From contig CAZRGQ010000002.1 in NCBI GenBank assembly GCA_964599645.1, forward strand, positions 22,275-86,274: DNA of 64,000 nucleotides, read 5' to 3'. This document shows, in pieces, positions 468-63,938 of the stretch (position 1 is the stretch's first letter; each line of letters starts with the position of its first letter). Below the pieces are notes generated by a model. It saw nothing but the letters and a program-made list of their open reading frames with translations. It was not told the DNA's origin and searched no databases. Origin of the DNA: an uncultured Lentisphaerales bacterium. Lineage in GTDB: Bacteria; Verrucomicrobiota; Kiritimatiellia; RFP12; JAAYLN01. A program made the position numbers and the translations under genes.

Positions 468-479
468 GTGCCGCCGGGG

Positions 480-1268: not shown

Positions 1269-1320
1269 ACAATGTCAAAGATACACGAAAAAGAGCATGA
1301 GTGCAATTCACAACGTTTGC

Positions 1321-3819
<2,499 letters not shown>

Positions 3820-5664: not shown

Positions 5665-5789
5665 CACAATGGTGGAACTTGTAAGTAATTGCCAAGATGC
5701 GGGCCTTCGTAAAATATTGGGTAACACAAAATGCGAGCCTGTCACTGGGCACATGTCTCTGTTGTAGTGCGCGAATAAAAGGATATACA

Positions 5790-6270: not shown

Positions 6271-6325
6271 CTTCTGAATTCTGGGTGCGCATCCACTATT
6301 GTGGATCGCACCCTCAGCCGACCCA

Positions 6326-7003: not shown

Positions 7004-7006
7004 GCA

Positions 7007-7720
7007 CTACTCCGGCTGTAGCGCCGCCGGTGTCTGCTCGGCAAAGCTGATCTGATCATAGCCGAAAATGGCGGCAAAATGCTCTACCACCAGCTCTTTG
7101 ATCCGCGCCATCGGTGGCGCGGTGCCGAGCAGACGCTCCAGCGAAGTGACGCCGGCATCGACCAGTCCGCACGGCACAATACCGGCGTAGTCGGTCAGAC
7201 GTGTCGTGATATTGAGGGCAAAACCGTGCATCGTCACCTGCCGCGACACCTTGATGCCGATCGCCACGATCTTATCGTTGCCCACCCAGACACCACGATT
7301 GCGGCTGTCACGTCCCGCATTGGCCAGACCGCACGCCTTGAGGGTTGTGATCAGAACCTCCTCGACGGCCGTGATATAGTCGGTCACTCCCATGCCACGC
7401 TCTGCGAGGTTGATGATCGGGTAGCCCACCAACTGTCCCGGTCCATGATAGGTGGCATCGCCGCCCCGTGTGGTTGTGACGCATTCGATACCCGCTGCGG
7501 CCAACGCCTCCCGGCTCCAGCGCAGATTCTCCGGTTGTGCCGAGCGTCCCATTGTATAGACCGGCGTATGCTCCAGCAGGAGCAGCCGGTCATGGCACAT
7601 GCCGTTGCGGCGCTCGGCGTGGTACTGCTCCTGCAGGCGGAATGCCGTCTGATATGGCACCGCACGGCCCAAATCTTCGATCGTGATGCAACCAGCCATT
7701 ACCACTCTCTCCCCAAACAC
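7007..7720 (-). CDS. lipB: Lipoyl(octanoyl) transferase
   Basis: The product reads …LLLLEHTPVYTMGRS…GGDATYHGPGQLVGYPII…KIVAIGIKVSRQVTMHGFALN…, which are typical LipB motifs. The true start may be the internal Met near 7699. Confidence 0.85.
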   Translation of the reverse strand: MFGERVVMAGCITIEDLGRAVPYQTAFRLQEQYHAERRNGMCHDRLLLLEHTPVYTMGRSAQPENLRWSREALAAAGIECVTTTRGGDATYHGPGQLVGYPIINLAERGMGVTDYITAVEEVLITTLKACGLANAGRDSRNRGVWVGNDKIVAIGIKVSRQVTMHGFALNITTRLTDYAGIVPCGLVDAGVTSLERLLGTAPPMARIKELVVEHFAAIFGYDQISFAEQTPAALQPE

Positions 7721-8245: not shown

Positions 8246-9781
8246 ATGAGCACTACCTCCACTCCGCTACGCATCGGCTGGGCCATGCGCGATGTCTCGA
8301 CCGACAAGCCGATCACGATACCCGGCCAGTTTCACATCAGAGTCTCCACCGGTGTGCTCGATCCGGTTACCGTTACCGCTCTCGTCATCAGCAATGAGAG
8401 TGACGACGTGATCTTCGTCTCAGCCGATATCGTCTCGTGCCGCAACTACTTGCTCGACGAAATCCGGCGTCGCATTCAGGAGTTGGACCCCTCGATACCG
8501 GTAGAGAAGATTGTGCTTAACGCGACTCATACCCATACCGGTCCCCAGACCTCAGGCGACAGCACCGTCGCCGAGGGGGCCACCGCCACGCTTCAAGCCT
8601 GTCCGCATGACGGGGTGGAGATCGCCTCGGGCGATGAGTATCGTGCCTTCTTCGTGGCCCAGACGGCGGCTGCAGTCGTGGAGGCGTGGCAAGCACGCGC
8701 ACCGGGCGGTTATGCCTACGGTTACGGCTTTGCCGTTGTGGCCCATAGCCGCCGGGTCGTCTACTTTGACGACACCTCCCTGCGCCCCGGTGCCCAGAAA
8801 AATCCGCGCCACGGGCTGCATGGACATGCGCAGATGTATGGCCAGACCAACGATCCGATGTTCAGCCACTATGAGGCCGGAGCCGATCCCTATGTGAATC
8901 TGCTCTACACCTTCGATGCGCAGGGCGAGCTGACGGGGGCCATCGTCAACGTGCCGGCGCCATCGCAGAACTCCGAGAGCTATACACGACTCTCCTCCTC
9001 CTACTGGCATGAGACGCGCGAGGCGATCAGGGCCAAGCATGGCAACATCTTTATCTTGGCACAGTGCGCCGCCGCCGGTGACCTTGCACCGCGCCAACTC
9101 CACTACCGGGCAGCCGAGGAGCGACGCTATCGCCTCAAATATGGCCCCGACCATAACCCCGAGCAAATACCGGAGTATGAACGCCGCTGTGATATCGCGG
9201 AACGCATCGCCGCCGCCTTTGACGAGGTGCTCGCCTGGGCGCGTCACGATATCCACCAGTCAGCCGATTTGCGCCACCGCGTTGAGACAGTTAAACTCGC
9301 CAAGCGGATGATCAGCGACGAAGCCTGGCAGCAGTCGTGCGCCGAGTTGGAGCGCCTCAGCCATGAAGAGTTTGTCAAGAGCGACGATCCGCAGCGCGAT
9401 CTCTACACCAACTCTCTCCTGGCGGCCAGCCGCAACCGTCTGCAGCAGGTGATCCGGCGCTATCAGGAGCAGCAGCAGGAGCCCAAGCTGGAGATGGAGC
9501 TCCATGCGATCCGACTGGGCGACATCTCCTTTGCCACCAACCGTTTTGAGCTCTTCATGGACTACCAGCACCGTATCCAGGCGCGCAGCCCCTTTGTACA
9601 GACCTTTGTGGTGCAATTGACAGCCTCTCCCGGCAGTGGCGGCGGCTCCTACCTGGCAACCGAACGCGGCGTCTGGGGACGCGGCTACAGTGCCAGCATG
9701 TATTGCAATCAAGTCTCCCCCGAAGGAGGGCAGGAGTTGGTGGAGGAGACGCTGCGCCTGCTGAAAGAAATCGCCGATTAG
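8246..9781 (+). CDS. Conserved hydrolase-like protein with an HTHxGP motif (possibly a neutral/alkaline ceramidase-like family); paralog of 62394..63938
   Basis: The 511-aa product carries the motif NATHTHTGPQ. About 50% of residues are identical, by eye, to the ORF at the window end. The family assignment is uncertain. Confidence 0.5.
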   Translation: MSTTSTPLRIGWAMRDVSTDKPITIPGQFHIRVSTGVLDPVTVTALVISNESDDVIFVSADIVSCRNYLLDEIRRRIQELDPSIPVEKIVLNATHTHTGPQTSGDSTVAEGATATLQACPHDGVEIASGDEYRAFFVAQTAAAVVEAWQARAPGGYAYGYGFAVVAHSRRVVYFDDTSLRPGAQKNPRHGLHGHAQMYGQTNDPMFSHYEAGADPYVNLLYTFDAQGELTGAIVNVPAPSQNSESYTRLSSSYWHETREAIRAKHGNIFILAQCAAAGDLAPRQLHYRAAEERRYRLKYGPDHNPEQIPEYERRCDIAERIAAAFDEVLAWARHDIHQSADLRHRVETVKLAKRMISDEAWQQSCAELERLSHEEFVKSDDPQRDLYTNSLLAASRNRLQQVIRRYQEQQQEPKLEMELHAIRLGDISFATNRFELFMDYQHRIQARSPFVQTFVVQLTASPGSGGGSYLATERGVWGRGYSASMYCNQVSPEGGQELVEETLRLLKEIAD

Positions 9782-15014: not shown

Positions 15015-15059
15015 GAGTGCATATGAAGTGGCAACCGCAAAATCTTTCACAGTTTCGGG
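15015..15059. repeat. Copy of a dispersed intergenic motif (GAGTGCAT..GTGGCAAC.GCAAAATCTTTCACAGTTTCGGG)
   Basis: It is related to 61008..61045, 18060..18084, 35701..35726 (reverse orientation) and 17966..17977. Confidence 0.45.
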
Positions 15060-15138
15060 CTAAAAAGTCCCCTTGCGCGGAGGCGCGCCAGTTGCTAAAC
15101 TCGAAACTGTAACGCCACCCAATAACCCGCACTATCTT

Positions 15139-17900: not shown

Positions 17901-18059
17901 AGCGGTGTTATGGCATCAGCAAGGTAGGGTGCCCTGAGCTTGTCGAAGGGCCGAGCGCGCCGCAGGTGGCAAAAGCGGTGTGGATTTCTCACGAACGGAG
18001 TGGCGCGGTAACCACGGATAGATTGTAATTTGTGAGCTGTGAGTTGTAACCCGGCGTAA

Positions 18060-18084
18060 CAGCAAAAATCTCTCGCAGTTTTGG
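18060..18084. repeat. Copy of the intergenic motif CAGCAAAAATCTCTCGCAGTTTTGG
   Basis: It lies about 40 nt upstream of the hlyIII ATG. It is identical over 20 nt with the motif at 61025..61044. Confidence 0.45.
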
Positions 18085-18121
18085 ATTGCATCGCTGCCAC
18101 TTATATTCTAGGCTGCACTGC

Positions 18122-31525: not shown

Positions 31526-34500
31526 TCACCTGTCACCTTGGCTGCCGCAACAGCGCTTATATTTTTTACCGCTACCACAGGGGCAAGGGGCATTGCGCCC
31601 TACCTTGCTGTTTTGGAGGTCTTGTGTTGCCGGTGCAGCTCCGAAGCCGGGAGGCTGCCGGGGCTGGTAACCGTCATCAGCTCCGGTCTGGAGTTGTCGG
31701 TATGCCTTAAGGGAAGATTTAAAATCTTCGTCGAAATCATAGCGGTTATTACTCCTATGGTGGTTCTGCTTCACTTCGAACTCCTGAGGCACCTCATCAT
31801 CAAACCAACCGGCGCTATCATAATCGGCCGTAGCAACATCAGACCCGCTGCCGCTGTAGCTGTTTTTCCGCGCCGGCCGTGCAACGGAAGCGGTCTTGCG
31901 CTTCCAATTGCTGTCAAGCAGTTGACCCATTGTCTGGTAAGTATCTTTGCAGTGAACCCGGTTGCCATAGCGGCCAAGTATTCTCTCGCCGATACTTTCT
32001 GTTTTTTGCCAGGGTGTCAAAGCGCTACTCGCAGCCAACTCTCCAAGCGTCAGCACGCGTTTATCAATCAATCCCAAGCGTATCGCGGCCTGAAGCTCGA
32101 GGTTTAATTCGTTTGGGAAATGGGTAGCAGCAAAGGCAACTGCCTGATTGACGATAACCAGGTAGGGGCCCAAGTCGCTACTCTCCCGACAGCCGCGTTG
32201 AATGATCCGCCGCAAGAGCGTCAACATGATGGCGGGATTCAGGTTGCGATACCGGTAGAGCAGCTCCATCGCCCGCAGCATGGCAAAGGTGTGATAGGTG
32301 GCAACATCGCCACTGCTCTGGTATTTGATATCATTGAGAATCGGTTTTAGATTGCCATCGCAGACGGCAGAGATTGCCGGAGCGGTAAAATTCCACCACT
32401 CGCGATAGTTAAGCTGCCCGATAAATTTGGCCAGCACTCTGTGCGCCTCGACCATGAGGTTGTAGTGTCCGGTGGAGCACCATTCACCAAGCTGGGCGAT
32501 GGCATACAAGAGGCCAAACTCCTCATGCTCTCCAATCCGGCCGTGCTCTGTCACCCTCTTCAAAAAGGCGCCGAGCGTCCAGGCCGCCACTTCTGGCTCT
32601 TGCTGCATCCAGGCTATCTCGCCAAAGCGCCCTTCAAGGTGGTTGCCCAGAGCCGACATGGCGTCGGCATGGCGTTGCCGCTCGGCCTGCTTTGTTGGTT
32701 CAGTCGCCCGACCGATGGGAACGCTATCCGCAAGCTCCTGCAGTTTGACCACTTCAGGGAGCGGCTGCCCCTGATCGACAAATCCTGCCGCACCGGCCTC
32801 CTGTTCCTCCGGCTCCCCCGCCGGCATCAGACCGCTCGCCGCATTCAGGCGCTTTACAATGCGGTTGCGTTCCCGCTCCAGATAGTCGAGAAACCTATCC
32901 GGCCCCTCGCCGGCATACTCATTCTTGATCTCAGCCACATGCACCATCTGGTAGAGGTTGTGCCACTGGCCATCACGCTCCAGCTCGATCGCCGGGTTGG
33001 GCAGATAGTAGCCCCGGCTGATGCGCCAGAAGAGCTGGCGGTTGTAGCGTGCCTCGCGATCGACCTCGTTGCCCGCCAGAGTTGCCGAGATGGCGCTGCG
33101 TTTGCCATAGCGCTTCGGGATTACCGACTCGGGGAAGTCGACCAGTTCAGCCTCAAAATCGGCCGCGGTAAAGCCCGGTTTATACTCCACGCCATGAACT
33201 GAAGTGAGCTTCTGCACCAGGCGGGCAATCATCGAGTGGAAGAGGAAGAAGCCGAGTCGGTGGCGGTCAAGTTGCACCAACCGGTTGCCGACACGCAGGT
33301 TGGTGGCCGGGGGCACCAGCAGGGCGTAGAGTTGCGGCAGCGTGTTGCGGGCGTGGAGTACGTTTTGATAGGCCACCCGCAAGGCCAGATGTAGCGGCGT
33401 GCAGCCCCAGGAGTCCGTTGCAGTACGACTGGCACCGGCCGCTATCAGCTCGGCTACCAACCGCTCCTGACCGAGCTGCACCGCCATCATCAGTGGTGTC
33501 AAGTTGACCTGGTTACGGAAATCGACTCCGTGCCGCTCAATTTTACGCCACAGATCGCGGTGTCCCCGCTGATGGTAATCGATACCAAGGCGTCGCATGG
33601 CATCGTTGCGCGCCAGATTGATGCGTATCTTGTCGATTGCGGTTTCGTGATGCTTGAGTTCAAAAAAGAGGGTGTAGAGGCCGTAACAGATGGTATAGTC
33701 AGCCAGTGGGCGGAAGAGGTCGTTTTTGACAGGGTTTCTCTCTTGACGCCACTGTTCGAGGCGCTCGATGAGGTTGTCGGGGGTGATCACAACCCACGGC
33801 ACTGGCTCGAGCTGCAAGATTTTATCGGCAATCGCCTGCGACTGCTCCAGCTTTCCCTGCCGCTCCAGGCGCAACGCCTCGGCGCGCCACTCGTCGTCGC
33901 TCGAACGCTCCTCGACAAGCCCAGCCTGCCCCCGCTCCTGCAGCCTGAGCAGACGCAGCAAGGGGTGTTCCGTCTGGCGTTCCAGAATATAGACGTGCGC
34001 AATGGCGCGCGTCAGGGCCACGTAGAGGGCGTTGATGTAGAACTTGAAGGCGTCCAGCGAGCGGTCGCTCTTATCGCGTGCCCGCCCATATTTAAAGTCG
34101 TTTTCAAGGTCGGCTTCCGTTACGCCCGTCACGATCTGATTAAATTCGGCCGCCTGCCCTGAAACCAGCCCCGGCAGGATGATGTGTTCATACTCCAAGC
34201 CCTTGGCTTCACGTACGCTGAAGACCAGTGGTGTGGCAAAGCTCTGCCGGGCGGCCTCTTTATCCTCATCGCGCAACACGATAACGGCAAAGCGGGTGGA
34301 GCGCGATGTCTTCTGATCCAGCTCGCGTCTGGTGGCCGCTGTATCTGCCAGAAATGTGACCCCACCGGCCCGCTCACTGACCGGTTTGATCAGATAGTGG
34401 CTTTCACGGTCGATTGAGCCGAAACGCGCCTGTTTGATGCGCAACAACCGGTTGGCAACCTCGGTCACCTCGGGCGCATTGCGATAGTTGGCGTTTAAAA

Positions 34501-35650
34501 TCCGTACCAACTCGCCATGAGCGGCCGGCTGATAGTCGTGAAACCACGTCTTGACGCCAGCCCAGGAGAAGAAGTTGGGGTGGACGATCTGGTTGGAGTC
34601 GCCACACAGGACAAACTGCCCCGGCGTGCGCAAGGCCTGCAGCGCCAGACTCAACTGCACCGTGGTCATATCCTGCACTTCATCGGCGACGATGAAGTCG
34701 TAACGTGCCTGGCAACGTTTGTGATGGTCGTAGCAGACTAGATTGAGGTCATAACAGCCGCTCTGGGGCAGCCATGCCAGATAGCGGAGGAAGAGGTCGT
34801 AGATCAGCGGACGCTCATCAGCGGTAAAGATCGAGCGTCGCACCCCGAGCGAGAGGTACTCTTCGCGCGTCAGACAGGGGTTTTCAACGGCTGATCCGGT
34901 CAGGACACCGTTAAACTCCTCGTAGAGTTTGTGTGAATCGCGCTGTGCGCTACGTCCGCCAGAGCGGCGCAACCACTGTACAAAATCGGCAAACCCCAGC
35001 GGCCGCCCCGCTGGCACCGCAATTGATTCGACGAACTCCCGGAAGGAGAGAAAGTCGACCTCCTGGGCCTCGTTCTCATAGTTATGCGAAAAATAGATGG
35101 TGCGGGCATTATCGACCAGGTAGGGAGAGTGCGTCAGATAGAGCACCTCGCCCGGTAGCTGGCGCAACTTCTCAAGTGTCAGGACGGTTTTACCGCTGCC
35201 GGCGGCACCGATCAAAATCAGCGGTGGCGGCTGCTGCAATGCCTCTTGCTGGTCGTCATCAAACGAGATGATCTTGTCCAACAGATGGACGCGTTGCATC
35301 GCAGGGTTGAGATAGGCCAGCGGCACGACATCATCGGTAGTGAGCGGCTCAGCCTTTTCGAGTGAGACCAGACGATTCTCAGCCACGACAGCCCCGCGCA
35401 TAAAACGTGAGTTTTCGTAGTCGTGGTTGCGTATCACCTCGAGCAGGATCAGGGCGCGTTCACCACGACAGGCGCCGAAGCAGAAGAGCAGGCGATCGGC
35501 ATCAGAGAGCTTGGCACGGTAGAGATTGCCGGGCTGCATCTTTTTTACTTCGGCAGCTTTAAAATCACCTGCCGCAAGATATGCAACTGTACGCTCGAAA
35601 GGGCGCTTCAAACCTTGTGTATTGAGATCCTCGTACTGGAAAATTTGCAT
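31526..35650 (-). CDS. Multidomain fusion protein: N-terminal YoeB/RelE-like toxin domain, SF1A UvrD-like helicase core, ankyrin repeats, helical domain and C-terminal SEC-C zinc motif
   Basis: The track ORF begins at TTG 35686; the first ATG is 35650 (MQIFQYEDL…).
- The N-terminus (…NLYRAKLSDADRLLFCF…ERALILLEVIRNHDY) aligns with the YoeB/RelE C-terminus (…HRLVY…SLLIAACRYHY), including the catalytic-position H-x-Y.
- Helicase motifs are present: Q/I (QQEAL…LILIGAAGSGKT), II (ADEVQD), III (CGDSNQ), IV (NYRN), V (REAKGLEYEHIIL) and VI (YVALTRAIAHV).
- Ankyrin repeats are present: …NLTPLMMAVQLGQERLVAELIAAGA…GCTPLHLAL….
- The C-terminus reads …RNAPCPCGSGKKYKRCCGS, a SEC-C motif. Confidence 0.7.
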   Translation of the reverse strand: MQIFQYEDLNTQGLKRPFERTVAYLAAGDFKAAEVKKMQPGNLYRAKLSDADRLLFCFGACRGERALILLEVIRNHDYENSRFMRGAVVAENRLVSLEKAEPLTTDDVVPLAYLNPAMQRVHLLDKIISFDDDQQEALQQPPPLILIGAAGSGKTVLTLEKLRQLPGEVLYLTHSPYLVDNARTIYFSHNYENEAQEVDFLSFREFVESIAVPAGRPLGFADFVQWLRRSGGRSAQRDSHKLYEEFNGVLTGSAVENPCLTREEYLSLGVRRSIFTADERPLIYDLFLRYLAWLPQSGCYDLNLVCYDHHKRCQARYDFIVADEVQDMTTVQLSLALQALRTPGQFVLCGDSNQIVHPNFFSWAGVKTWFHDYQPAAHGELVRILNANYRNAPEVTEVANRLLRIKQARFGSIDRESHYLIKPVSERAGGVTFLADTAATRRELDQKTSRSTRFAVIVLRDEDKEAARQSFATPLVFSVREAKGLEYEHIILPGLVSGQAAEFNQIVTGVTEADLENDFKYGRARDKSDRSLDAFKFYINALYVALTRAIAHVYILERQTEHPLLRLLRLQERGQAGLVEERSSDDEWRAEALRLERQGKLEQSQAIADKILQLEPVPWVVITPDNLIERLEQWRQERNPVKNDLFRPLADYTICYGLYTLFFELKHHETAIDKIRINLARNDAMRRLGIDYHQRGHRDLWRKIERHGVDFRNQVNLTPLMMAVQLGQERLVAELIAAGASRTATDSWGCTPLHLALRVAYQNVLHARNTLPQLYALLVPPATNLRVGNRLVQLDRHRLGFFLFHSMIARLVQKLTSVHGVEYKPGFTAADFEAELVDFPESVIPKRYGKRSAISATLAGNEVDREARYNRQLFWRISRGYYLPNPAIELERDGQWHNLYQMVHVAEIKNEYAGEGPDRFLDYLERERNRIVKRLNAASGLMPAGEPEEQEAGAAGFVDQGQPLPEVVKLQELADSVPIGRATEPTKQAERQRHADAMSALGNHLEGRFGEIAWMQQEPEVAAWTLGAFLKRVTEHGRIGEHEEFGLLYAIAQLGEWCSTGHYNLMVEAHRVLAKFIGQLNYREWWNFTAPAISAVCDGNLKPILNDIKYQSSGDVATYHTFAMLRAMELLYRYRNLNPAIMLTLLRRIIQRGCRESSDLGPYLVIVNQAVAFAATHFPNELNLELQAAIRLGLIDKRVLTLGELAASSALTPWQKTESIGERILGRYGNRVHCKDTYQTMGQLLDSNWKRKTASVARPARKNSYSGSGSDVATADYDSAGWFDDEVPQEFEVKQNHHRSNNRYDFDEDFKSSLKAYRQLQTGADDGYQPRQPPGFGAAPATQDLQNSKVGRNAPCPCGSGKKYKRCCGSQGDR

Positions 35651-35700
35651 ATTTGCAAGCTTATCAATTGCAACCTGCGACAGCAACCACGTTTAACTCT

Positions 35701-35726
35701 TGCAAAGCTGCGAGAGATTTCTGCGG
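35701..35726. repeat. Reverse-orientation copy of the intergenic motif (CCGCAGAAATCTCTCGCAGCTTTGCA on the minus strand)
   Basis: It lies about 50 nt upstream of the helicase-fusion ATG, in the rpoC-helicase spacer. Confidence 0.45.
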
Positions 35727-35825
35727 AGGCCGCTTACTCATGCACTTTCTCCAGCTCTGGCGGCTAACCAGAGGTTCGCCCTCCAGTTAGCCCTGTCAAG
35801 CATCTGGTCTGATTTTGCCGCCGTG

Positions 35826-55030: not shown

Positions 55031-56038
55031 CTACTCGCTGCGTGCCAGTGCCAGCTCCCGGCGCGCCAGCGCCAGGTCCGACTCCACCATCATCCGCACC
55101 AATTCGCGGAAACTCACCTTGCGCTCCCAACCGAGCACCTGCTTCGCCTTGGCGGGGTTGCCCAGCAGCAGGTCCACCTCGCTGGGACGCTCGTAGCGGC
55201 TGTCGTGGCGCACAAACTGCTGCCAGTCGAGATCGACCAGCCCGAAGGCCTCTTCGCAAAACTCGCGTACGCTGTGAGTCTCGCCGGTCGCCACCACATA
55301 GTCATCGGGATTCTCCTGCTGCATCATCAGCCACATAGCCTCGACGTAGTCGCCGGCAAAGCCCCAATCACGCCGCGCCTCGATGTTGCCGAGGAAGAGC
55401 TGCTCCTGTAGGCCCAGCTTGATGCGCGCTACCGCGCGGGTGATCTTGCGCGTCACGAAGGTCTCGCCGCGCCGCGGCGACTCGTGGTTGAAGAGGATGC
55501 CGTTGGAGGCGTGCATGTCGTAGGCTTCACGGTAGTTGACCGTCATCCAATAGGCGTAGAGCTTGGCCACCGCATAGGGCGAACGTGGATGGAAGGGGGT
55601 CGTCTCCGACTGCGGCGTCTCCACCACCTTGCCATAGAGCTCCGACGACGAGGCCTGATAGAAGCGCACCTTGTGGTCGATGCCCGCCTCGCGAATCGCA
55701 TCGAGAATCCTGGTGGTGCCGATGCCCGTCACGTCGCCGGTATACTCGGGAATGTCAAACGAGACCCGCACATGGCTCTGCGCCCCCAGATGGTAGACCT
55801 CGTCGGGCTTCAACTCATAGAGCAGCTTGGTGAGTCTGGTCGAGTCGGCCAGATCGCCATAGTGGAGAAAGAGCTTCACCCCCATGATATGCGGATCCTG
55901 GTAGAGGTGGTCGATCCGCTCGGTGTTGAAGCTCGACGAACGTCGAATCACACCGTGAACCTCATACCCCTTCTCAAGCAGCAGTTCAGTCAGGTAAGAG
56001 CCATCCTGGCCCGTGATACCGGTAATAAAAGCGCGTTT
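55031..56038 (-). CDS. gmd: GDP-mannose 4,6-dehydratase
   Basis: The product reads [47 protein letters not shown]… and matches Gmd closely. Confidence 0.9.
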
Positions 56039-56074
56039 CATAGCCCCATGATAGCAATTCAACCCGATTTTGTA

Positions 56075-56115
56075 ATTGCGCATTAACGCAATAATTTAAT
56101 ATGATTTTGCGCAAA
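56075..56115. promoter_or_regulatory. Two palindromic operator-like sites in the gmd / regulator divergent region: ATTGCG-CATTAA-CGCAAT (56075-56092) and TTTGCGCAAA (56106-56115)
   Basis: Both are perfect palindromes seen directly. The second abuts the ATG of the AraC/XylR-like regulator. Confidence 0.4.
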
Positions 56116-57248
56116 TGGCCGCTATCCTCACTATCGCACTGCTGCTCGACACCGACTTCGATGAGACTCTGGCCCTCTATCGCGGCATTGAAGAGTATGC
56201 GCAACGCCAGCCGCAGTGGCGTCTCTTGCCGCTGCGTCTGAGCCAGACCAACCTGCTTGCAACCCTGCTGCAGGAGCGGCGGCTCGACGGCATCATCGGC
56301 TCTTTTATCAGCGACCGCTGGTTGCAGGGGATAATCCCTGCCACCACTCCCTGCGTCAACATCTCCGACCTCTCTGCCATCCTCTCGATCTCCGGTGTCG
56401 TTACCGACAACCAACTTGTGGGTCGCCTGGCAGCACAACATCTGCTGCAACAGGAGTTCCCCCACTTCGGCGTCGTGGCTGAGTCGGCCTCGCACGCCGC
56501 CACGCTGCGCCGCGATGGTTTTATTGCCACCCTCAAAGCAGCGGGACATCACGTCGCCGCCCCCCCACTTGCCACCGGCCACACCGCCGACGCCACCTGG
56601 CTCGCCTGGCTGGCCCAACTTCCGCTTCCCTGCGGCATCTTCTGTACCAGCGACTTCCTCGCCCGACGCCTGCTCAACCACGCTGTCACGCTCAAACTGC
56701 CCCTGCACAACTCCATCGGTGTGGTCGGTGTGGGCAATGCCCCCCTCGAAAGCCTGCTGGCGCCCATCCCCATCTCCACCATCGAGCTCGACGGCTTCCG
56801 CATCGGCAAACAGGCCGCCCAACTCCTGGCGCGCCTTCTGGTTACCCCCATCTCCTCCGCCACGCCGCCCCACTCCCTGCTGGTGCCCCCACGCCAACTT
56901 ATTCCCCGTGCCTCCTCTCTCTCTGCGCAGCAGAGCGACCCCCTGGTCGCCCGCGCCTTCAAACAGCAGAACTTTGCCCGTCCCCTTGACGGCGAGGCTC
57001 TTGCCCGCGCCTGTGGTGCCTCGCGCCGCACCCTCGAAAACCGCTTTCGTCAGCGACTCGGCTGCGGCCCCGCCACCCTTATGCGCCAACAGCGCCTGGC
57101 ACACGCCGCCCTCCTCTTGTCCAACACCACCCTCACACTCGAGGCGATTGCCCAGGCTGTCGGCTATGCCCACGCCTCAGCCTTCTCCGCCGCCTTCCGC
57201 CGTGCCTACGGCAGCGCCCCCGGTGCCTGGCGGCACAGCTTTGAATAG
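56115..57248 (+). CDS. AraC/XylR-type transcriptional regulator (periplasmic-binding-protein-like sensor domain plus C-terminal AraC HTH)
   Basis: The C-terminus (…RTLENRFRQRLGCGPATLMRQQRLAHAALLLSNTTLTLEAIAQAVGYAHASAFSAAFRRAYGSAP) has AraC signature. The N-terminal part looks like a sugar-binding fold. Confidence 0.7.
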   Translation: MAAILTIALLLDTDFDETLALYRGIEEYAQRQPQWRLLPLRLSQTNLLATLLQERRLDGIIGSFISDRWLQGIIPATTPCVNISDLSAILSISGVVTDNQLVGRLAAQHLLQQEFPHFGVVAESASHAATLRRDGFIATLKAAGHHVAAPPLATGHTADATWLAWLAQLPLPCGIFCTSDFLARRLLNHAVTLKLPLHNSIGVVGVGNAPLESLLAPIPISTIELDGFRIGKQAAQLLARLLVTPISSATPPHSLLVPPRQLIPRASSLSAQQSDPLVARAFKQQNFARPLDGEALARACGASRRTLENRFRQRLGCGPATLMRQQRLAHAALLLSNTTLTLEAIAQAVGYAHASAFSAAFRRAYGSAPGAWRHSFE

Positions 57249-57274
57249 AGCAGCAGCCTTCTGCGTAGTATGGA

Positions 57275-57386
57275 GGGTTGTGCTTCTGCACAACCGCGGC
57301 AGAGCAATAGCTCTGGCGATCAGAGCAAAGGGTTGTGCTTCTGCACAACTGCGGTAGAGCAATAGCTCTGGCGATCAGAGCAAAGA
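57275..57386. repeat. Two tandem copies of a ~56-nt hairpin-containing repeat (GGGTTGTGCTTCTGCACAACCGCGGCAGAGCAATAGCTCTGGCGATCAGAGCAAAG)
   Basis: Each unit holds two short hairpins (GGTTGTGC-TTCT-GCACAACC and CAGAGC-AATA-GCTCTG). A third copy lies at 60948..61003, on the other side of the RM gene. Confidence 0.6.
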
Positions 57387-57392
57387 GAGTGC

Positions 57393-57578
57393 ATGGAGAA
57401 GCGAACGCAAATCCGGGTGGATGCCCAAGCCTTGACCACGATGCATAATGCGGCTACTATTCTGGCTGTGATACATGCAAGAGATTGTTTCAACATTCAG
57501 GATCGGGGTGAGGGCTTAATCGAAGCCGGTTTGAGCACCGCCAAGGGCAACCGGACCCGGAAAGGGTTTTCACAATGA
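57393..57578 (+). CDS. Small ORF (61 aa) whose stop overlaps the RM gene start (ATGA)
   Basis: The sequence …ttt tca caA TGA gcaac has the ORF's TGA stop overlapping the ATG of the type IIG gene. No recognisable HTH is present, and coding status is uncertain. Confidence 0.25.
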   Translation: MEKRTQIRVDAQALTTMHNAATILAVIHARDCFNIQDRGEGLIEAGLSTAKGNRTRKGFSQ

Positions 57579-60500
57579 GCAACAGGGCACTTTTCACCGA
57601 CTACCTCAAAGAGTTGCACTCGGTCGCCATGCAGGGCGATGCAAGGGAGGAGAGCTTCTACCCTGCCCTTGCGGATATGCTTAACCTTGTTGCTGAAAAC
57701 GCAGGCAAAAAGGTGGTTCGCACTACAGTCCTGCCGAAACCGAACGATGCAGGGAACCCCGATTTACGCTTGTGGAACGGTCGCGACAGGATCATCGGTT
57801 ATGTTGAAGCCAAGAAGCCATCTGAAGAGCGGCTTGACTCCGTTGAGGAGTCGGAGCAGCTCATGCGCTATCGGAGCACCTTTCCTAATCTGATCCTGAC
57901 CAACTTCTTCGAGTTTCGCCTCTATCGCAATGGGGAGCTGGTGCAGAGCGCCCGCATCGCCCGCCCCTTTGTGATGACGCGTTTACGCACGGCACCAGCG
58001 GTTGAAAAGCCGGATGAGCTTAAGGAGTTGCTGGAGCGCTTTCTCGACTTTTCGCTGCCCAAAGTCTTCACGGCTGAGACGCTTGCCGTGGAACTTGCCA
58101 AGCGTACCCGCTTCCTGCGTGACGTCGTCGGCCAGCAATTGGCCAGTGAAAGAGAGACGCCGGGAGAACTGACAGGTTTTTATGAGGCCTTTCAAACCTA
58201 CCTGATTGGCTCGTTGACTCTCGAAGATTTTGCCGACCTCTTTGCCCAAACCATCACCTACGGTCTCTTTGTCGCCCGCATCCGCTCAGGGGAGGGTTTC
58301 AATCGCCTTACGGCCTTCAACAGCATTCCGCATACAATCGGTGTGCTGCGTGATCTTTTCCGTTTCCTCTCCCTTGGCGACCTACCGGAACAGCTTGCCT
58401 GGAGCGTGGACGATATTGCCGAAGTGCTGGCCGTGGCCGACGCCTCCGGCATCCTCGACCGCTACTACCATGAGGGCAAAGGCAGTGACCCCATTGTGCA
58501 CTTCTATGAAACGTTTCTGGCGCAGTATGACCCCGCCGAGCGTGAAAGACGCGGCGTTTACTACACGCCTGAACCGGTAGTAGACTACATCGTGCGTTCG
58601 CTCCACAACATCCTTAAAAGCGACTTCGACAAACCTGACGGTCTGGCGTCGAAAGGCGTGACCTTGCTTGATCCGGCAGCCGGAACGATGACCTTTATTG
58701 CCCATGCCGCCAAACAGGCGGTCAGTGAATTTGAAGAGAAGTACGGCAAGGGTGGCCGAGGCGACTTTATCCGCCAGCATGTCCTCAAAAACTTCTACGC
58801 ATTCGAGCTGATGATGGCGCCCTATGCTGTCGGCCATCTCAAGATGAGTTTCCTGCTCGAAGAGCTGGGGCACAAGCTCACCGATGCTGAACGCGTACCA
58901 TTCTACCTCACCAACACGCTGGACAACGAGGAGCTGGAGCAGAGCCGTCTGCCCGGCTTCTCCGCCCTGGCGGAGGAGTCCCGGCTGGCCGGGGTGGTCA
59001 AAAAACAGACCCCGCTCCTTGTCATTCTGGGCAACCCGCCCTATTCCGGCCACTCCACCAACACGGGCGACTGGATTCGGGGCTTGATCGACACCTATAA
59101 AGTGGTTGATGGCAAGCCTCTGGGTGAAAGGAACCCGAAATGGCTACAAGACGACTATGTCAAGTTCCTGCGCTTTGCCCAATGGAAGATTGAGCAGGCC
59201 GGGCGTGGTGTGGTTGGGATGATCACCAACCACGGTTATCTTGAAAACCCCACCTTTCGCGGCATGCGCCAGAGTCTGATGCAGACCTTCGATGGCATCT
59301 ACCTCCTCGACCTGCATGGCAATGCGCTCAAAAAAGAGACCTCTCCCGACGGCAGCCCCGACAACAACGTATTTGATATTAGGCAAGGCGTTGCTATTGC
59401 CTTTTTCGTCAAGCGGGGTGGCAAAAAAACCAAAAAAAGCGCCAAGGTCTGGCATACCGATCTCTACGGTGCCCGTGAAACAAAATATGGCTGGCTGGGT
59501 AAGCATGACCAGGCTTCCACCGGTTGGACTCAATTGCAGCCTGCCAAGCCCTTCTATCTCTTCAGTCCGCTGGATGTCACACTCTACGACTCTTACCGCA
59601 ATTTTATCGGAGTGCCGGAGATATTTCCCACAAACAGCGTCGGGATTGTTACGGCTCGTGACAGCCTGACGATCCACTGGAGAGAGCAGGAGGTCTGGCG
59701 CACTGTAAATGTTTTTGCCAAGTCAGACCCGGAAATTGCCCGTCAAGCCTTCAATCTAGGCAAAGATGCAGCAGACTGGAAAGTTACTCTGGCACAAAAA
59801 GATTTGATTGACTCTGGCCCGGATCGTGACAATATCACACGAATACTCTATCGGCCATTTGATGTGCGCCATACCTACTACACAGGCCAGTCGCGTGGAT
59901 TCATCTGTAGACCGCGTGCTGAAGTCATGCGTCACATGCTGGCCGGAGAGAATCTGGCGTTAATTCTTCCCAAACGTGTTGAACAGATGGGATCTTGGCA
60001 ACATGCTTTGGCAACGAGCACGATCTCGGGTCATGTGGCCGTATCGTTGAAGACGATCGACTACCACTTCCCTCTCTATCTCTATCCTAGTCAAGTACAT
60101 ACAAAGCGAACCAAGTTAAATCCCGGTCGATTTGTGCCGATGATGCTCTTTGAAGAAAAGGAGATGTACGAAGCAAGGCACCCCAACTTGAACCCTCTGT
60201 TATGCTCTGCATTTGAATCTGGCTACGGAGAGATACCGACACCGGAAACCATCTTCCACTACATCTATGCTGTGCTCTATGCTCCCGCTTATCGGGACAA
60301 GTACGTCGAGTTTCTCAAGAGCGACTTCCCACGTATCCCCTTTACAGCCGATTACGGTCTGTTCAAGAAGCTGGCCACCATCGGTGAAAAACTGGTGGCG
60401 CTGCATCTGCTCAAGTCGCCTGATCTCAACCCGCCGGCCTGCCGCTTTGAGGGAGAAGGTGACAATCGTGTGGAAAAGAGCCGCAAGGCCGGTTTGCGCT

Positions 60501-60769
60501 ACGAGGCAGCAGAAGAGCGTGTTTATATCAACGCGGAACAATATTTTGCGCCGGTACCGGCAGCGGTCTGGAACTATCAGATCGGTGGGTATCAGGTCTG
60601 TGACAAGTGGCTCAAGGATCGCCAAGAGCGCCGGCTCGATCTCGACGACATCCTCGACTACTGCCGTATCGTTACGGCGCTTGGTCAAACCATCGCGCTA
60701 CAGGCTGAGGTCGACACGCTCTATCCGCTGGTAGAAGAAGAACTACTGACAGTCATGCCACCCGCCTGA
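57575..60769 (+). CDS. Single-chain type IIG (MmeI-like) restriction-modification enzyme: N-terminal PD-(D/E)xK nuclease, N6-adenine methyltransferase (NPPY) and C-terminal target-recognition region
   Basis: The 1064-aa product has an N-terminal …NPDLRLWNGRDRIIGYVEAKKP… (D…ExK). It has the MTase motif IV (LLVILGNPPYSGHS) and a SAM-binding region (…LLDPAAGTMTF…). Its GC content is visibly lower than the neighbouring genes. Confidence 0.7.
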   Translation: MSNRALFTDYLKELHSVAMQGDAREESFYPALADMLNLVAENAGKKVVRTTVLPKPNDAGNPDLRLWNGRDRIIGYVEAKKPSEERLDSVEESEQLMRYRSTFPNLILTNFFEFRLYRNGELVQSARIARPFVMTRLRTAPAVEKPDELKELLERFLDFSLPKVFTAETLAVELAKRTRFLRDVVGQQLASERETPGELTGFYEAFQTYLIGSLTLEDFADLFAQTITYGLFVARIRSGEGFNRLTAFNSIPHTIGVLRDLFRFLSLGDLPEQLAWSVDDIAEVLAVADASGILDRYYHEGKGSDPIVHFYETFLAQYDPAERERRGVYYTPEPVVDYIVRSLHNILKSDFDKPDGLASKGVTLLDPAAGTMTFIAHAAKQAVSEFEEKYGKGGRGDFIRQHVLKNFYAFELMMAPYAVGHLKMSFLLEELGHKLTDAERVPFYLTNTLDNEELEQSRLPGFSALAEESRLAGVVKKQTPLLVILGNPPYSGHSTNTGDWIRGLIDTYKVVDGKPLGERNPKWLQDDYVKFLRFAQWKIEQAGRGVVGMITNHGYLENPTFRGMRQSLMQTFDGIYLLDLHGNALKKETSPDGSPDNNVFDIRQGVAIAFFVKRGGKKTKKSAKVWHTDLYGARETKYGWLGKHDQASTGWTQLQPAKPFYLFSPLDVTLYDSYRNFIGVPEIFPTNSVGIVTARDSLTIHWREQEVWRTVNVFAKSDPEIARQAFNLGKDAADWKVTLAQKDLIDSGPDRDNITRILYRPFDVRHTYYTGQSRGFICRPRAEVMRHMLAGENLALILPKRVEQMGSWQHALATSTISGHVAVSLKTIDYHFPLYLYPSQVHTKRTKLNPGRFVPMMLFEEKEMYEARHPNLNPLLCSAFESGYGEIPTPETIFHYIYAVLYAPAYRDKYVEFLKSDFPRIPFTADYGLFKKLATIGEKLVALHLLKSPDLNPPACRFEGEGDNRVEKSRKAGLRYEAAEERVYINAEQYFAPVPAAVWNYQIGGYQVCDKWLKDRQERRLDLDDILDYCRIVTALGQTIALQAEVDTLYPLVEEELLTVMPPA

Positions 60770-60776
60770 TAAGGAT

Positions 60777-60799
60777 GAGATTCAACTTGGTTGAATCTC
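60777..60799 (+). terminator. Hairpin immediately after the RM gene stop (GAGATTCAA-cttgg-TTGAATCTC)
   Basis: It has a perfect 9-bp stem. No U-tract follows, so terminator function is uncertain. Confidence 0.3.
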
Positions 60800-60947
60800 A
60801 CCCCCGTGCCTGAGGGCAGCCCTGTTCTGCGGAGGATGTTAACCTTCGCTGCCACTCTTGATGCTCAACCCCTTGCGCTCACGGCTCGGCAGAGCCTCGC
60901 CCTCTAGCTGACTTAATACACTCGATGGTTGATGTAATCGAAATGGA

Positions 60948-61045
60948 GGGCTGTGCTTCTGCACAGCCGCGGCAGAGCGACAGCTCTGGCGATTAGAGCA
61001 AGAGAAAGCGCATGGGAGAGTGGCAAACAGAAAAAATCTCTCGCA
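60948..61045. repeat. Composite intergenic element: a third copy of the ~56-nt hairpin repeat plus the GTGGCAAACAG-AAAAAATCTCTCGCAGTTTTGGGGG module
   Basis: The sequence is GGGCTGTGCTTCTGCACAGCCGCGGCAGAGCGACAGCTCTGGCGATTAGAGCAAGAG…GAGTGGCAAACAGAAAAAATCTCTCGCAGTTTTGGGGG. It lies about 75 nt upstream of tRNA-Arg. Confidence 0.6.
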
Positions 61046-61120
61046 GTTTTGGGGGCAGCTTTGAGGCTTGAATTTCGCACTCCCTATCCCTTAAGATAGC
61101 AGCCGCAAACGGTATTGAGG

Positions 61121-61197
61121 AGGCCAGTAGCTCAGTTGGACAGAGCACAAGATTCCTAATCTTGGGGTCGCGGGTTCGAGCCCCGCCTGGCCTACCA
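61121..61197 (+). tRNA. tRNA-Arg (anticodon CCU)
   Basis: The hand fold is AGGCCAG-UA-GCUC AGUUGGACA GAGC-A-CAAGA UUCCUAA UCUUG-GGGUC-GCGGG UUCGAGC CCCGC-CUGGCCU-A-CCA. Confidence 0.85.
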
Positions 61198-61318
61198 CGC
61201 TGTCGGTATTTCAAGGCCTTTACTGCTGCCGCCAAAGAGGGTACAATAAAGGATCGTTGCACTTTACCAGCCGATCGACACACGTCGCCGGCGGCCCCCC
61301 TTCACCAAGAGTAGTATT

Positions 61319-62056
61319 ATGAGCAAGCTGGGCATCCAAAGTTACTGTTACCGGGGCATCAAAGAGTTGTCAGGCCTGATCAGCGCTGTGAAAGCAAGCG
61401 GCGTCGACTGCATCGAACTCTGTGGCGTCCACGCCGACTTCTACGACGTCAGCAAACACGCTGCGACCATTGCCGCCTTTAAAGAGCGCCGGATTCGCAT
61501 CGCCTCCATCGGCGTCAACAACATCGGTACTGACCTCGAACAGGCGCGCCCACTCTTTGAGTTTGTCAAGGCAGCCGGCACCAGACACATCAGCATCTCC
61601 TTTGATATCCATACTATCCCCGTCAGCTTCCGCATCGCCGAACGCCTGGCGGACGAGTATGATGTGCGCCTCGGCATCCACAACCACGGCGGTTACGACT
61701 GGCTCGGCAACCTGCCCTCTCTGAGCTGGGTCTTTGCCCAGACCTCCAAGCGTATCGGCCTCTCGCTCGATACCGCCTGGGCCATGCAGACGGGGCGCGA
61801 CCCTCTCAAGTACGTCGAACTCTTCGGCGACCGTCTCTCGCTGCTCCATATCAAGGACTTCACCTTCGACCGCGCTGCACGCTGGACCGATGTCGTCGCC
61901 GGCAGCGGCAATCTCAACCTCGCCGCCCTCCAGGAGAGCCTCGACCAGGTCGGCTACACGGGCGATGTCATTATCGAGTATGAGGGCGACGTCGATAATC
62001 CCGTGCCGGCACTGCAGCAGTGTGTCGCTGCGGTACGTGCCGCCATGAAGGTCTAA
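61319..62056 (+). CDS. Sugar phosphate isomerase/epimerase (xylose-isomerase-like TIM barrel)
   Basis: The 245-aa product has the patterns …GVDCIELCG…, …LGIHNHGG…, …LLHIKDF… and …IIEYEGD…. Confidence 0.65.
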   Translation: MSKLGIQSYCYRGIKELSGLISAVKASGVDCIELCGVHADFYDVSKHAATIAAFKERRIRIASIGVNNIGTDLEQARPLFEFVKAAGTRHISISFDIHTIPVSFRIAERLADEYDVRLGIHNHGGYDWLGNLPSLSWVFAQTSKRIGLSLDTAWAMQTGRDPLKYVELFGDRLSLLHIKDFTFDRAARWTDVVAGSGNLNLAALQESLDQVGYTGDVIIEYEGDVDNPVPALQQCVAAVRAAMKV

Positions 62057-62397: not shown

Positions 62398-63938
62398 CAA
62401 CACAACTCCCCGCCACCGATCTCATGATCGGCTGGGCTACACGCGACATCAGCACCACTGCCCCCGTCTATATTCCGGGGTAATTCGACATCCGGGTCTC
62501 CCGCGGAGTGCAAGACCCCCTCAGCACCACCGCTCTCGTCATTGCCAACGAACAGGATGCCATCATCTTCGTCTCGGTCGACTCCGTCTATATCACGCCC
62601 GAGCTGATCAAGCTGGTACACGAGGCCGTGGCCGCCCGTGATGCCACCGTGCCCACCGCCAACATTGCCATCCATGCCACCCACACCCATGAGGCCCCCA
62701 ACCACGCCACCGGTGCCATCGCCGGCCTGGCGACCCCCGAGACTGTGCCCCATGAGGGTGTCGAGATCGAATCGTCCGCTATCTATTGCGACCTCCTGGT
62801 CGCCGCAGTCAGCGACGCGATCGTCACGGCCTGGAGTCAACGCGCCCCCGGCGGCGTCTCGCACGGCTACGGCTTTGCCGTGGTCGGCCACAGCCGCCGC
62901 GCGGTCTACTTCGACGACCTCTCCCAGCGGCCCGATGTCGCCGCCCTCCCCGGCATGTCCGTCAATGGCCACGCCAAGATGTACGGCTCCACTGCCGACG
63001 CCAAGTTCAGCCACTACGAAGCCGGCACCGACCCCTTTATCAACTTCCTCTATACCTTCGACACTGCGGGCCAACTCACCGGTGCCATCATCAACGTGCC
63101 CGCCCCCTCGCAATGCTCCGAGCACCTCCACTACCTCAGTGCCGACTACTGGCACGAGGTGCGCCAGACCCTCCACAAGCGCTACGGCGCGATCGGCATC
63201 CTGCCGCAATGTGCCGCTGCCGGCGACCTGTCACCCCGCATCCTACACTTCCAACGGGCTCAGCAACGCCGTTTCGCCCTTAAATATGGCAACGACGGCG
63301 AGTACAACAGCGTGGTCAACGCCCAGCGCGCCGATATCGCCGAGCGCATCTGCCACGCCTTCGACGAAGTGCTCGACTGGGCGCGCCACGGTATCAGCAG
63401 CGCCCTGCCGATCCAGCATGAGGTCGCGACCATCGGCCTCTCGCGCCGCTATATCAGCGACAGCGAGGCGCGGAACGAGGAGCAGCTCCTCGCAGAGCTG
63501 ATGGCCGAGCCGCTCAAGAACGACGGCACCCCAGCCGAGCAGTTACGCTACAACTCGATTCTCATTGCCCGCCGCAACCGCTGCGCCCGCATCCTCGACT
63601 TCCACCGCGAACAGCAGACGCAACCCACCTGCGACGTCGAACTCCACGTCGCCCGCCTCGGCAATATCGCCTTCGCCACCAACCCCTTTGAGCTCTACAT
63701 CGACTACATGCACCGCATCCAGGGACGCAGCCCCTTCGAGCTGACCTTTATCGTCCAGCTCGTCGGCAACCCCCACGGCGTCGCCGGCTACCTCGCCACT
63801 GAGCGGGGTGAAGCCGGACGCGGCTACAGCGCCAGTATCTACTGCAACCAGGTCTCCTTCAAAGGCGGCCAGGAGCTGGTCGAAAACACACTGTTGCGCC
63901 TCAACCGCTTCGCCGCCGAGATCCCGCTTACAGAATAG
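62394..63938 (+). pseudogene. Paralog of 8246..9781 (HTHxGP-motif hydrolase) interrupted by an in-frame TAA at 62481-62483; alternatively an N-terminally truncated CDS starting at 62508
   Basis: My translation from the ATG at 62394 reads MTTQLPATDLMIGWATRDISTTAPVYIPG*FDIRVSRGVQDPLSTTALVIANEQDAIIFVSVD…. It aligns residue by residue with copy 1 (…LRIGWAMRDVSTDKPITIPGQFHIRVSTGVLDPVTVTALVISNESDDVIFVSAD…). The stop sits exactly at the Gln position of copy 1, and the reading frame is otherwise intact to 63938. Confidence 0.5.

Follow-up and report, generated by a model that had tools for sequence, protein, structure and literature searches.

The closest described relative of the restriction-modification (RM) gene examined here is DrdV from Deinococcus (PDB 7LO5/7LVV), a member of the Type IIL class. 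DrdV recognizes an asymmetric site, introduces N6-methyladenine (m6A) on one strand, and cuts at a fixed distance only once several DNA-bound molecules assemble (bioRxiv 10.1101/2021.01.06.425610, where the Type IIL class is also described). Enzymes of the MmeI family (Type IIL, PDB 5HR4) are of the same functional class, with a single-chain architecture (PMC2731913, PMC4833311). LlaGI and LlaBIII, both of Type ISP, have a homologous methyltransferase (MTase) and target recognition domain (TRD) in addition to a RecA-like translocase. We analyzed a 64,000-nucleotide stretch of contig CAZRGQ010000002.1 from an uncultured Lentisphaerales bacterium, hereafter the window, in which a 1,064-amino-acid (aa) RM open reading frame (ORF) lies between an XylR-like regulator gene and a tRNA-Arg(CCT) gene, with copies of a double-hairpin repeat on both sides.

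The RM protein belongs to the DrdV lineage of Type IIL/IIG enzymes, as an intact single chain that shares its MTase-TRD portion with Type ISP enzymes, and its gene was almost certainly acquired horizontally. For the locus as a whole, we consider it probable that an acquired Type IIL RM cassette occupies the xylR/tRNA-Arg(CCT) intergenic space beside modular repeats that belong to the host lineage. Labels L011-L075 denote fetched comparison contigs or loci. The cassette has the following features.

57432-57460 (+): sigma-70-type cassette promoter, TTGACC-17 nt-TACTAT, from a consensus promoter scan and conserved in homologous cassettes
57468-57578 (+): remnant of a ribbon-helix-helix (RHH) gene with the C-terminal ∼27 codons recognizable, from alignments with homologs
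57575-60769 (+): RM ORF, 1,064 aa
59962-60182 (+): variable TRD patch, approximately aa 797-869, where DNA similarity to the L027 gene (79% identical) is absent and local GC content is lowest (0.47)
60773-60803 (+): terminator-like hairpin with 14-nt arms and a 3-nt gap, 4 nt past the RM stop codon and lacking a U run

The top PDB match of the RM protein is DrdV (7LO5), to which it is collinear over residues 10-1020 with an E-value of 2.8e-53, improving to 5.9e-66 with a family profile; the single-sequence alignment consists of two segments, residues 10-771 and 866-1020. Both proteins are single chains of ∼1,030-1,060 aa that lack a translocase, have an MTase-TRD related to that of Type ISP enzymes, and follow an identical domain order, which in the window protein runs from an N-terminal PD-(D/E)XK nuclease through a helical connector and a gamma-class N6-adenine MTase to a Type_ISP_C TRD. 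Pfam matches are obtained for Type_ISP_C (aa 682-1039, 1.6e-86) and N6_Mtase (6.1e-8), and the PADLOC Type IIG model PDLC03610 (REase_MTase_IIG) scores 855 bits; NCBIfam contains no model matching the protein. The nuclease motif NPD63...E78-A-K80 lines up with the PD...ESK motif of DrdV. In an alignment of the window protein with ten homologs, D63, E78, and K80, motif I (LDPAAGTMTF), and motif IV (GNPPYSG) are all invariant. Motif I reads GTMTF where DrdV has GTGTF, and because it is invariant across homologs, the unusual Met is a trait of the family and not a sign of decay.

The first-pass annotation had described the gene as type IIG and MmeI-like. The single-chain Type IIG assignment holds, as reflected in the PADLOC score, whereas the relatives identified are DrdV, LlaGI, and LlaBIII, and membership in the MmeI family was rejected. 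No Pfam MmeI domain (MmeI_N, hel, Mtase, TRD, or C) is found in the protein at E ≤ 1e-3, and no MmeI or BpuSI chain is returned from the PDB at E ≤ 1, whether the query is the single sequence or the family profile. The likeness to MmeI thus concerns functional class, domain order, and the single chain, with no detectable membership in the sequence family. A Type ISP identity was also rejected. LlaGI and LlaBIII (PDB 4XQK, 5FFJ) match the RM protein from the MTase onward only (E = 1e-35 to 1e-52), with alignments that start at LlaGI residue 681 and LlaBIII residue 845; the RecA-like ATPase/translocase is absent from the window protein, and no helicase or ATPase Pfam match occurs in its 1,064 aa. 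The database label ‘type ISP’ carried by these ∼1,050-aa proteins is therefore misleading, since they have no translocase. PglX of the bacteriophage exclusion (BREX) system was considered as well. All ten PADLOC matches at E ≤ 0.001 are to RM, MTase, or mad2 models and none is to PglX, and the neighbors of the RM gene (gmd, xylR, a tRNA gene, and a TIM-barrel gene) likewise led us to reject BREX.

Homology with DrdV permits a prediction of mechanism and activity. The enzyme would bind an asymmetric site, with the MTase domain on one side and the TRD on the other, and would use S-adenosylmethionine to methylate one adenine (m6A) on one strand. Cleavage at a fixed short distance would be expected only when several enzyme molecules on unmethylated sites assemble, and under this requirement unmethylated phage DNA with multiple sites would be cut while the host DNA would merely be methylated. 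Collision-based cleavage after translocation cannot apply to this protein because it has no translocase. Sequence similarity to DrdV is low, and because the variable loops of the TRD differ, the DrdV specificity (CATGNAC) is not transferable to the window enzyme. The TRD patches (approximately aa 797-869, and also aa ∼620-690) are mosaic, and two discrete allelic types are found among homologs, for example ISGHVAVSLKTIDYHFP versus IIQHHTVSLKEVNYLFP. This pattern suggests that specificity may be swapped through exchange of segments. The DrdV-like Type IIL family, to which the RM gene adds one more member, is very large and widely transferred; if the enzyme were characterized, a new specificity would be the only practical gain. 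The current understanding of defense systems is unchanged by these findings.

The evidence for acquisition draws on composition and on the distribution of homologs, and involves the following flanking genes.

55031-56083 (-): gmd, divergent from the XylR-like gene (Pfam GDP_Man_Dehyd, 1.4e-147)
56115-57248 (+): XylR-like regulator on the left flank, with a periplasmic-binding-like domain and an AraC helix-turn-helix (HTH) domain (Pfam Peripla_BP_3, 2.6e-18; HTH_18, 3.2e-23)
61121-61197 (+): tRNA-Arg (anticodon CCT) on the right flank (ARAGORN; Rfam tRNA, 69.4 bits)

The RM ORF has a GC content of 0.544, compared with 0.618 and 0.604 for the 5-kb flanks, and a third-position GC content (GC3) of 0.638, compared with 0.72-0.84 for neighboring called genes (a single 76-aa gene, at 0.62, is the exception). 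It has the lowest GC content (z = -2.9) among 42 window ORFs of at least 150 aa, a set that was assembled by greedy selection and contains some spurious wrong-strand ORFs. Its synonymous codon-usage distance to host genes is 0.104, versus 0.047-0.064 for host genes of similar length. The visibly lower GC content reported in the first-pass annotation is thus borne out, as is the codon-usage deviation that was proposed there as a check.

Homologs of the RM protein number in the thousands. The best 120 listed are full length and 68-80% identical, and the named sources among them are metagenome-assembled genomes (MAGs) of Kiritimatiellia, Lentisphaerae, Acidobacteriota, Brocadiia, and Bacteroidota. 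In contrast, the best homologs of the adjoining XylR-like regulator are only 52-58% identical, with none above 58%. This discordance points to horizontal acquisition, as RM homologs at 68-80% identity span phyla while the relatives of the neighboring regulator do not exceed 58%; the source names of the homologs suggest an RM phylogeny that is incongruent with host markers. Homologs are intermediate in GC content between hosts: a 79-80%-identical gene has a GC content of 0.51 in a genome of 0.44, and another homolog has 0.62 in a genome of 0.58, compared with 0.54 in 0.61 for the window. Lentisphaerae MAGs with fcl-gmd/xylR synteny have queA and polA downstream of xylR, and no RM gene. No empty site was found, and insertion is therefore deduced from composition together with phylogenetic discordance.

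RM homologs sit as solitary genes amid unrelated housekeeping genes, usually without mobility genes. At the window locus, no integrase, recombinase, or transposase is present among the called neighbors, the insert lies 5′ of tRNA-Arg, and a search of the window with the 26-nt 3′ end of the tRNA at up to 3 mismatches yields no second copy. Since neither an integrase nor a direct repeat of the tRNA 3′ end is found, the tRNA-targeted island reading was rejected. A Lentisphaerae genome (L037/L038) has two tandem RM paralogs, at 534-3734 (1,066 aa) and 4001-7213 (1,070 aa), with no RHH gene and with a 267-nt spacer between them that is filled by a GGAC-rich repeat. As candidates for carriage by phages, thirty IMG/VR contigs (L039-L068) encode RM relatives at 28-70% identity; in the closest of these (L039), the one neighborhood inspected, no phage genes occur near the RM gene.

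The limits of the transferred DNA can be placed by comparison with homologous cassettes. The promoter is common to the window and three homolog lineages (L027-29, L030, and L035/36). It takes the form TTGAC(C/G), 17 nt, TAC(T/G)AT in L027, L028, L030, and L035, and is followed by CTGTGATACAT in the window, L027, and L028. In the three lineages, the promoter precedes an ORF of 64-66 aa that overlaps or abuts the RM start codon. The intact small ORFs of L030, L035, and L028 match Pfam RHH_10/HicB, while the ORF of the window matches neither, having lost ∼105 nt that comprise the Shine-Dalgarno sequence, the ATG, and the N-terminal half. A hidden Markov model (HMM) built from the intact RHH ORFs detects the window remnant with E = 2e-4, versus 1e-38 to 1e-42 for the intact ORFs, and a mechanically called 61-aa ORF at 57393-57578 merely reads across the promoter. 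The homology of the cassette has its left limit at 57430. DNA similarity between the window and L027 spans 57452-60754, with a gap at 59962-60182, and stops at the RM stop codon. Because the conserved promoter and RHH sequence lie on the left and homology ends at the RM stop codon on the right, we place the cassette proper, and thus the predicted transferable unit, at ∼57430-60769; it consists of the promoter, the decayed 3′ end of a putative controller gene of the RHH type, and the 1,064-aa RM ORF. The first-pass description of a compact acquired defense cassette therefore stands with respect to an acquired single-chain RM gene, but the unit is smaller than was proposed and excludes the repeats.

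A subclade of the RM family thus carries a conserved promoter and RHH gene, which has decayed in the window. The close relatives of the window gene have the RHH gene upstream; it is absent in other family members, including L037, L075, and all IMG/VR relatives. The arrangement in the close homologs, in which a small DNA-binding-type gene overlaps the RM start behind a conserved promoter, resembles that of RM operons regulated by controller (C) proteins. Usual C proteins have an HTH fold, whereas the small protein of the homologs has an RHH fold, and its regulatory role is putative. In the window, the truncated product would be unable to bind DNA as an RHH protein, and autoregulation has presumably been lost with the truncation. 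A controller-regulated operon was accordingly rejected for the window, where an intact upstream regulator is gone and only the C-terminal ∼27 codons, with no Pfam match, are left.

Gene and context are fixed within the population of this organism: metagenome contigs from at least 10 sequencing runs have the same gene in the same context, namely xylR, two repeats, RM, a repeat, and the tRNA gene, and no excised or empty form is present among them. One candidate empty site was rejected. Contig LSQX01166266.1 (L011 = L017, GCA_001577815.1), from a biogas-reactor metagenome (PMC5985405), joins xylR via a single repeat to rsmE-dnaJ, and its left 2,713 nt are identical to the window, with all 5 mismatches inside the repeat. 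However, five independent Logan contigs have the rsmE-side repeat with a different upstream flank, and the xylR and rsmE loci share only an exact 29-mer, ATGGAGGGTTGTGCTTCTGCACAACCGCG. For these two reasons, we consider LSQX01166266.1 to be an assembly chimera, joined through the 29-nt stretch that two copies of the repeat have in common. The chimera does prove that this organism has a further repeat copy at the unrelated rsmE locus. Several Logan contigs end inside repeats. Many Logan contigs, from several samples, start or end at 58336-58367, inside the RM gene, on a stretch encoding the family-invariant sequence IGVLRDLFRF; these breaks most likely reflect k-mers shared with homologs in other community members and not a structural variant.

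The repeats that bracket the RM gene form the only family found by a repeat finder in the 64-kb window, with three members, and shuffled sequence gives 0 matches. The direct repeats lie at 57270-57328, 57325-57383 (tandem with the first, with a 55-nt period), and 60943-61001, and are 90-92% identical. The first-pass annotation had correctly noted two tandem double-hairpin copies upstream, a third downstream, and the tRNA-Arg gene 120 nt beyond the third copy. Additional repeat modules on both sides, related modules elsewhere in the window, and the promoter with its remnant gene were absent from that account. An alignment of all copies distinguishes three modules: U (∼45-55 nt, promoter-like), H (two hairpins), and T (tail). 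They are distributed in the window as follows.

57270-57328 (+): repeat copy 1, H only, 22 nt past the xylR-like stop codon
57325-57412 (+): repeat copy 2, H (57325-57383) plus the first part of T (T5′), with the tail certain to 57395 and followed by eye to 57412
60892-60946 (+): U module of copy 3, promoter-like CTGACT ... TGATGTAAT with an extended -10, shared with L021 by HMM
60943-61001 (+): H module of copy 3, with CT/AG in the hairpin-1 stem versus TT/AA in copies 1 and 2 (compensatory)
60995-61056 (+): T module of copy 3, GAGAAAGCGCATG...AAAAAATCTCTCGCAGTTTTGG (nhmmer, 4e-15)
35699-35790 (-): related element, a different 13-bp hairpin plus a T module, between the rpoC stop codon (Pfam) and a 1,386-aa helicase-like gene
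18055-18086 (+): 3′ part of the T module alone, AAATCTCTCGCAGTTTTG, directly upstream of an ORF start
15016-15060 (+): diverged lone T module

Each unit of 56-59 nt folds into GG(Y)TGTGC-TTCT-GCACA(R)CC, an 8-bp stem with a TTCT loop, followed by CAGAGC-NNNN-GCTCTG, a stem of 6-9 bp (z = -2.5 to -4.1). In an alignment of six distinct H copies, pairing extends to 96% of cells overall and to 100% in helix 1, in which compensatory changes occur at two columns (TT/AA, CT/AG, CA/TG). Several G-U pairs in the H module are valid on the sense strand only. Folding and covariation in these six related sequences are suggestive of structure at the RNA level. The T module takes the form GAGAAAGYGCATG...AAAAAATCTCTCGCAGTTTTGG across copies, and TGATGTAAT (or a variant with C) sits ∼7 nt before the head in the U module. 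A full U+H+T composition is found in copy 3 (60892-61056), the rsmE copy, and L021, although for the rsmE copy the U similarity was seen by eye only and the U-module HMM gave no match in rsmE-locus contigs. The repeat of L017 matches window 57329-57395 at 86.8% by BLAST. In L019, the H module is broken off beside an insertion sequence (IS) transposase gene: a 587-aa, IS transposase-like ORF at 208-1971 (-), IS1634-like by eye, adjoins the repeat (2102-2158) where the tail would be expected. Repeats of this family apparently can be interrupted by IS insertion.

Three further features of the repeats were tested and set aside. An inverted tail of the type seen in REPIN or miniature inverted-repeat transposable elements (MITEs), proposed upstream of copy 3 (60850-60879 versus 61007-61025), is matched or exceeded in score by 91 of 2,000 shuffles. 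By inspection, the copies show no covariation in support of an outer stem that would pair the U module with the 3′ end of H. Coding potential in the tail was rejected, also by inspection, as reading frames differ among copies. An integron gene cassette bounded by attC sites was also considered. The R''/R' core sites of attC elements have the consensus RYYYAAC/GTTRRRY; the hairpin loops here are 4 nt, no such cores are seen by eye, and no integrase is among the called neighbors.

Further copies of the repeat occur next to rsmE (in five independent samples) and on contigs LSQX01018928 and LSQX01385775, such that the family is known from about 5-6 loci. The H, T, and U modules are absent in 49 other fetched loci totaling 562 kb, a set comprising every fetched RM-homolog locus together with the XylR-ortholog loci, where the only matches are rsmE-locus contigs of the same organism. 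A scan of IMG/VR viral contigs gave no match to the repeat, and no genuine copy was found in GTDB representative genomes; one match in the latter, in a coding region of an Acidobacteria MAG and without a hairpin, was rejected as a chance match, as were L018 and L020 from the metagenome repeat scan. Because the modules are found at unrelated loci of the same organism and at none of the fetched RM-homolog loci, we assign the repeats to the host lineage rather than to the RM cassette. The earlier suggestion that they are remnants of a mobilizing element is contradicted by the same distribution and by the limits of the cassette homology, which leave the repeats outside.

Among the possibilities raised for the repeats in the first-pass annotation, REP-like insulators provide the best fit. 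Repetitive extragenic palindromic (REP) sequences and bacterial interspersed mosaic elements (BIMEs) of proteobacteria are short extragenic hairpin units found at gene ends, alone or in tandem, at unrelated loci, and with compensatory stem changes, as are the repeats described here. The window unit differs in consisting of two different hairpins with optional promoter-like and tail modules, in being known from only about 6 loci, and in its host, a bacterium of the PVC (Planctomycetes-Verrucomicrobia-Chlamydiae) group from anaerobic digesters. A conserved 5′ GTAG tetranucleotide is typical of REP elements, and it is not conserved in the window repeats. The H module most likely acts in RNA as hairpins at the 3′ ends of genes, where it could serve as a terminator, stabilizer, or insulator. 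In such a role, the hairpins would keep transcription that runs on from xylR apart from the RM promoter, and transcription that runs on from the RM gene apart from the tRNA gene. We favor REP-like 3′-end hairpins of this kind because the H copies lie on the sense strand right after genes (copies 1, 2, and 3, the L019 copy, and the rpoC variant are each downstream of a gene on the same strand) and because the obvious post-gene hairpins of this genome have no U tracts.

Several observations weigh against an acquired cassette that merely lies beside host repeats of this type. Of the window's four full H copies, three are placed around this single gene, a clustering that a generic REP-like role leaves unexplained. 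The left tail is truncated where the cassette side starts and the right tail is full, which is the pattern expected of repeat-mediated recombination. The hairpins lack U tracts, making a terminator function conjectural, and the promoter-like U module fits a small transcription unit better than it fits a 3′-end element. With the family seen at so few loci, and dispersal judged on 64 kb plus short contigs of the source organism, a genome-wide spread is only putative. As for the cassette itself, the HMMER alignment of the RM protein with DrdV is patchy (accuracy 0.66-0.77), the activity and specificity of the enzyme are putative, and no close-relative genome lacking the cassette was found.

The alternatives account for some of these observations at the expense of others. 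That the RM gene is ancestral to the lineage, its lower GC content reflecting functional or mutational constraint and not transfer, is very improbable: population contigs from several studies all agree in gene and context and codon usage deviates only moderately, but the protein is 80% identical to that of a 44%-GC genome while relatives of the adjoining regulator reach at most 58%, ∼70%-identical relatives exist in five phyla, and the syntenic gmd-xylR neighborhood of Lentisphaerae MAGs lacks the gene. Repeat-mediated capture, which we regard as unlikely, posits that incoming DNA, which might have been excised from a close relative or donated by one, carried a copy of the host repeat and that a homologous crossover in this copy, single (Campbell-type) or double, brought in the cassette; the flanking repeats would then be joints like attL and attR and could mediate excision. 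Direct repeats in the same orientation do bracket the insert, the left tail ends at ∼57395-57412 where cassette-unique sequence starts, and the right copy has the complete U+H+T composition, as capture would predict; 127 nt of non-homologous DNA (60770-60896) would have traveled with the cassette on the right. The copies, however, are only 90-92% identical, so that the event would have to be old or the partners diverged. No excised or empty form appears in more than 10 metagenome samples, where the sole single-copy contig is a chimera. Capture also finds no recombinase among the called neighbors and leaves the tandem duplication of copies 1 and 2 unexplained. It is quite unlikely that, more generally, U+H+T units are mobile or recombinogenic terminator-promoter modules through which the RM gene was captured and is exchangeable between strains by homologous recombination; if this were true, lineage-specific intergenic repeats would be landing pads for defense genes that need no dedicated recombinase.

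There is a slim chance that U+H+T is instead a small multi-copy transcription unit, either a small RNA gene or a mobile promoter with a structured leader, in which case tRNA-Arg would be under the control of copy 3, as its promoter or regulator, and the first two copies would be fragments that lack a promoter. In copy 3, the rsmE copy, and L021, a conserved extended -10-like sequence (TGATGTAAT, TGATGTAAC, or TGATATAAC) precedes the head by ∼7 nt; the T modules at 61.05, 35.7, 18.06, and 15.0 kb, and that of L021, each lie a short distance upstream of a gene start; and the strand-specific G-U pairs favor an RNA. Yet an Rfam scan of 56000-62000 at E ≤ 10 finds the tRNA as its sole match, a clear terminator is lacking, and the L019 copy, like copies 1 and 2, lies directly after a stop codon without a full U module. 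The rsmE copy faces a convergent gene and points into its 3′ end, and the promoter likeness of this copy was judged by eye, the U-module HMM having missed it. With three full copies known, conservation may moreover reflect recent common origin. The proposal of a non-autonomous mobile element, a MITE or composite transposon, that carries the RM gene and has the repeats as its ends is largely refuted and retains next to no probability. In its favor, the repeats bracket the gene and a family member (L019) adjoins an IS transposase gene, but the flanking copies are direct and not inverted, neither a target-site duplication nor a terminal inverted repeat is found (the best inverted match being the tail that shuffling reproduces), no transposase is among the called neighbors, the repeat is in none of the fetched RM-homolog loci, and the IS in L019 interrupts the repeat rather than using it. 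We thus retain the reading of an acquired cassette beside host-lineage repeats. In this undersampled digester lineage, Lentisphaerae-like by best hits, the modular hairpin repeat family causes metagenome assemblies to break and lies behind at least one public contig that is chimeric.

The T module also contains the 18-mer AAATCTCTCGCAGYTTTG, which occurs exactly three times in the window, versus 0.02 expected, at 18066-18083 (+), 35703-35720 (-), and 61034-61051 (+). It recurs just upstream of gene starts, and could be a promoter or 5′-UTR (untranslated region) motif of the host lineage. One of these genes is a 1,386-aa ORF at 31526-35686 (-), directly downstream of rpoC and preceded by the T-module repeat. 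This ORF has weak matches to superfamily 1 helicases and AAA proteins, ankyrin repeats, and a C-terminal SEC-C motif, and its GC content (0.575) and GC3 (0.68) are below those of its neighbors; it may be another acquired or defense-type gene. Elsewhere in the window, paralogous genes of ∼480-510 aa are located at 8246-9781 and 62508-63938, with DNA that is 72-73% identical over 8676-9754/62821-63893. The paralog at 62508-63938 has a weak match to neutral/alkaline ceramidase.

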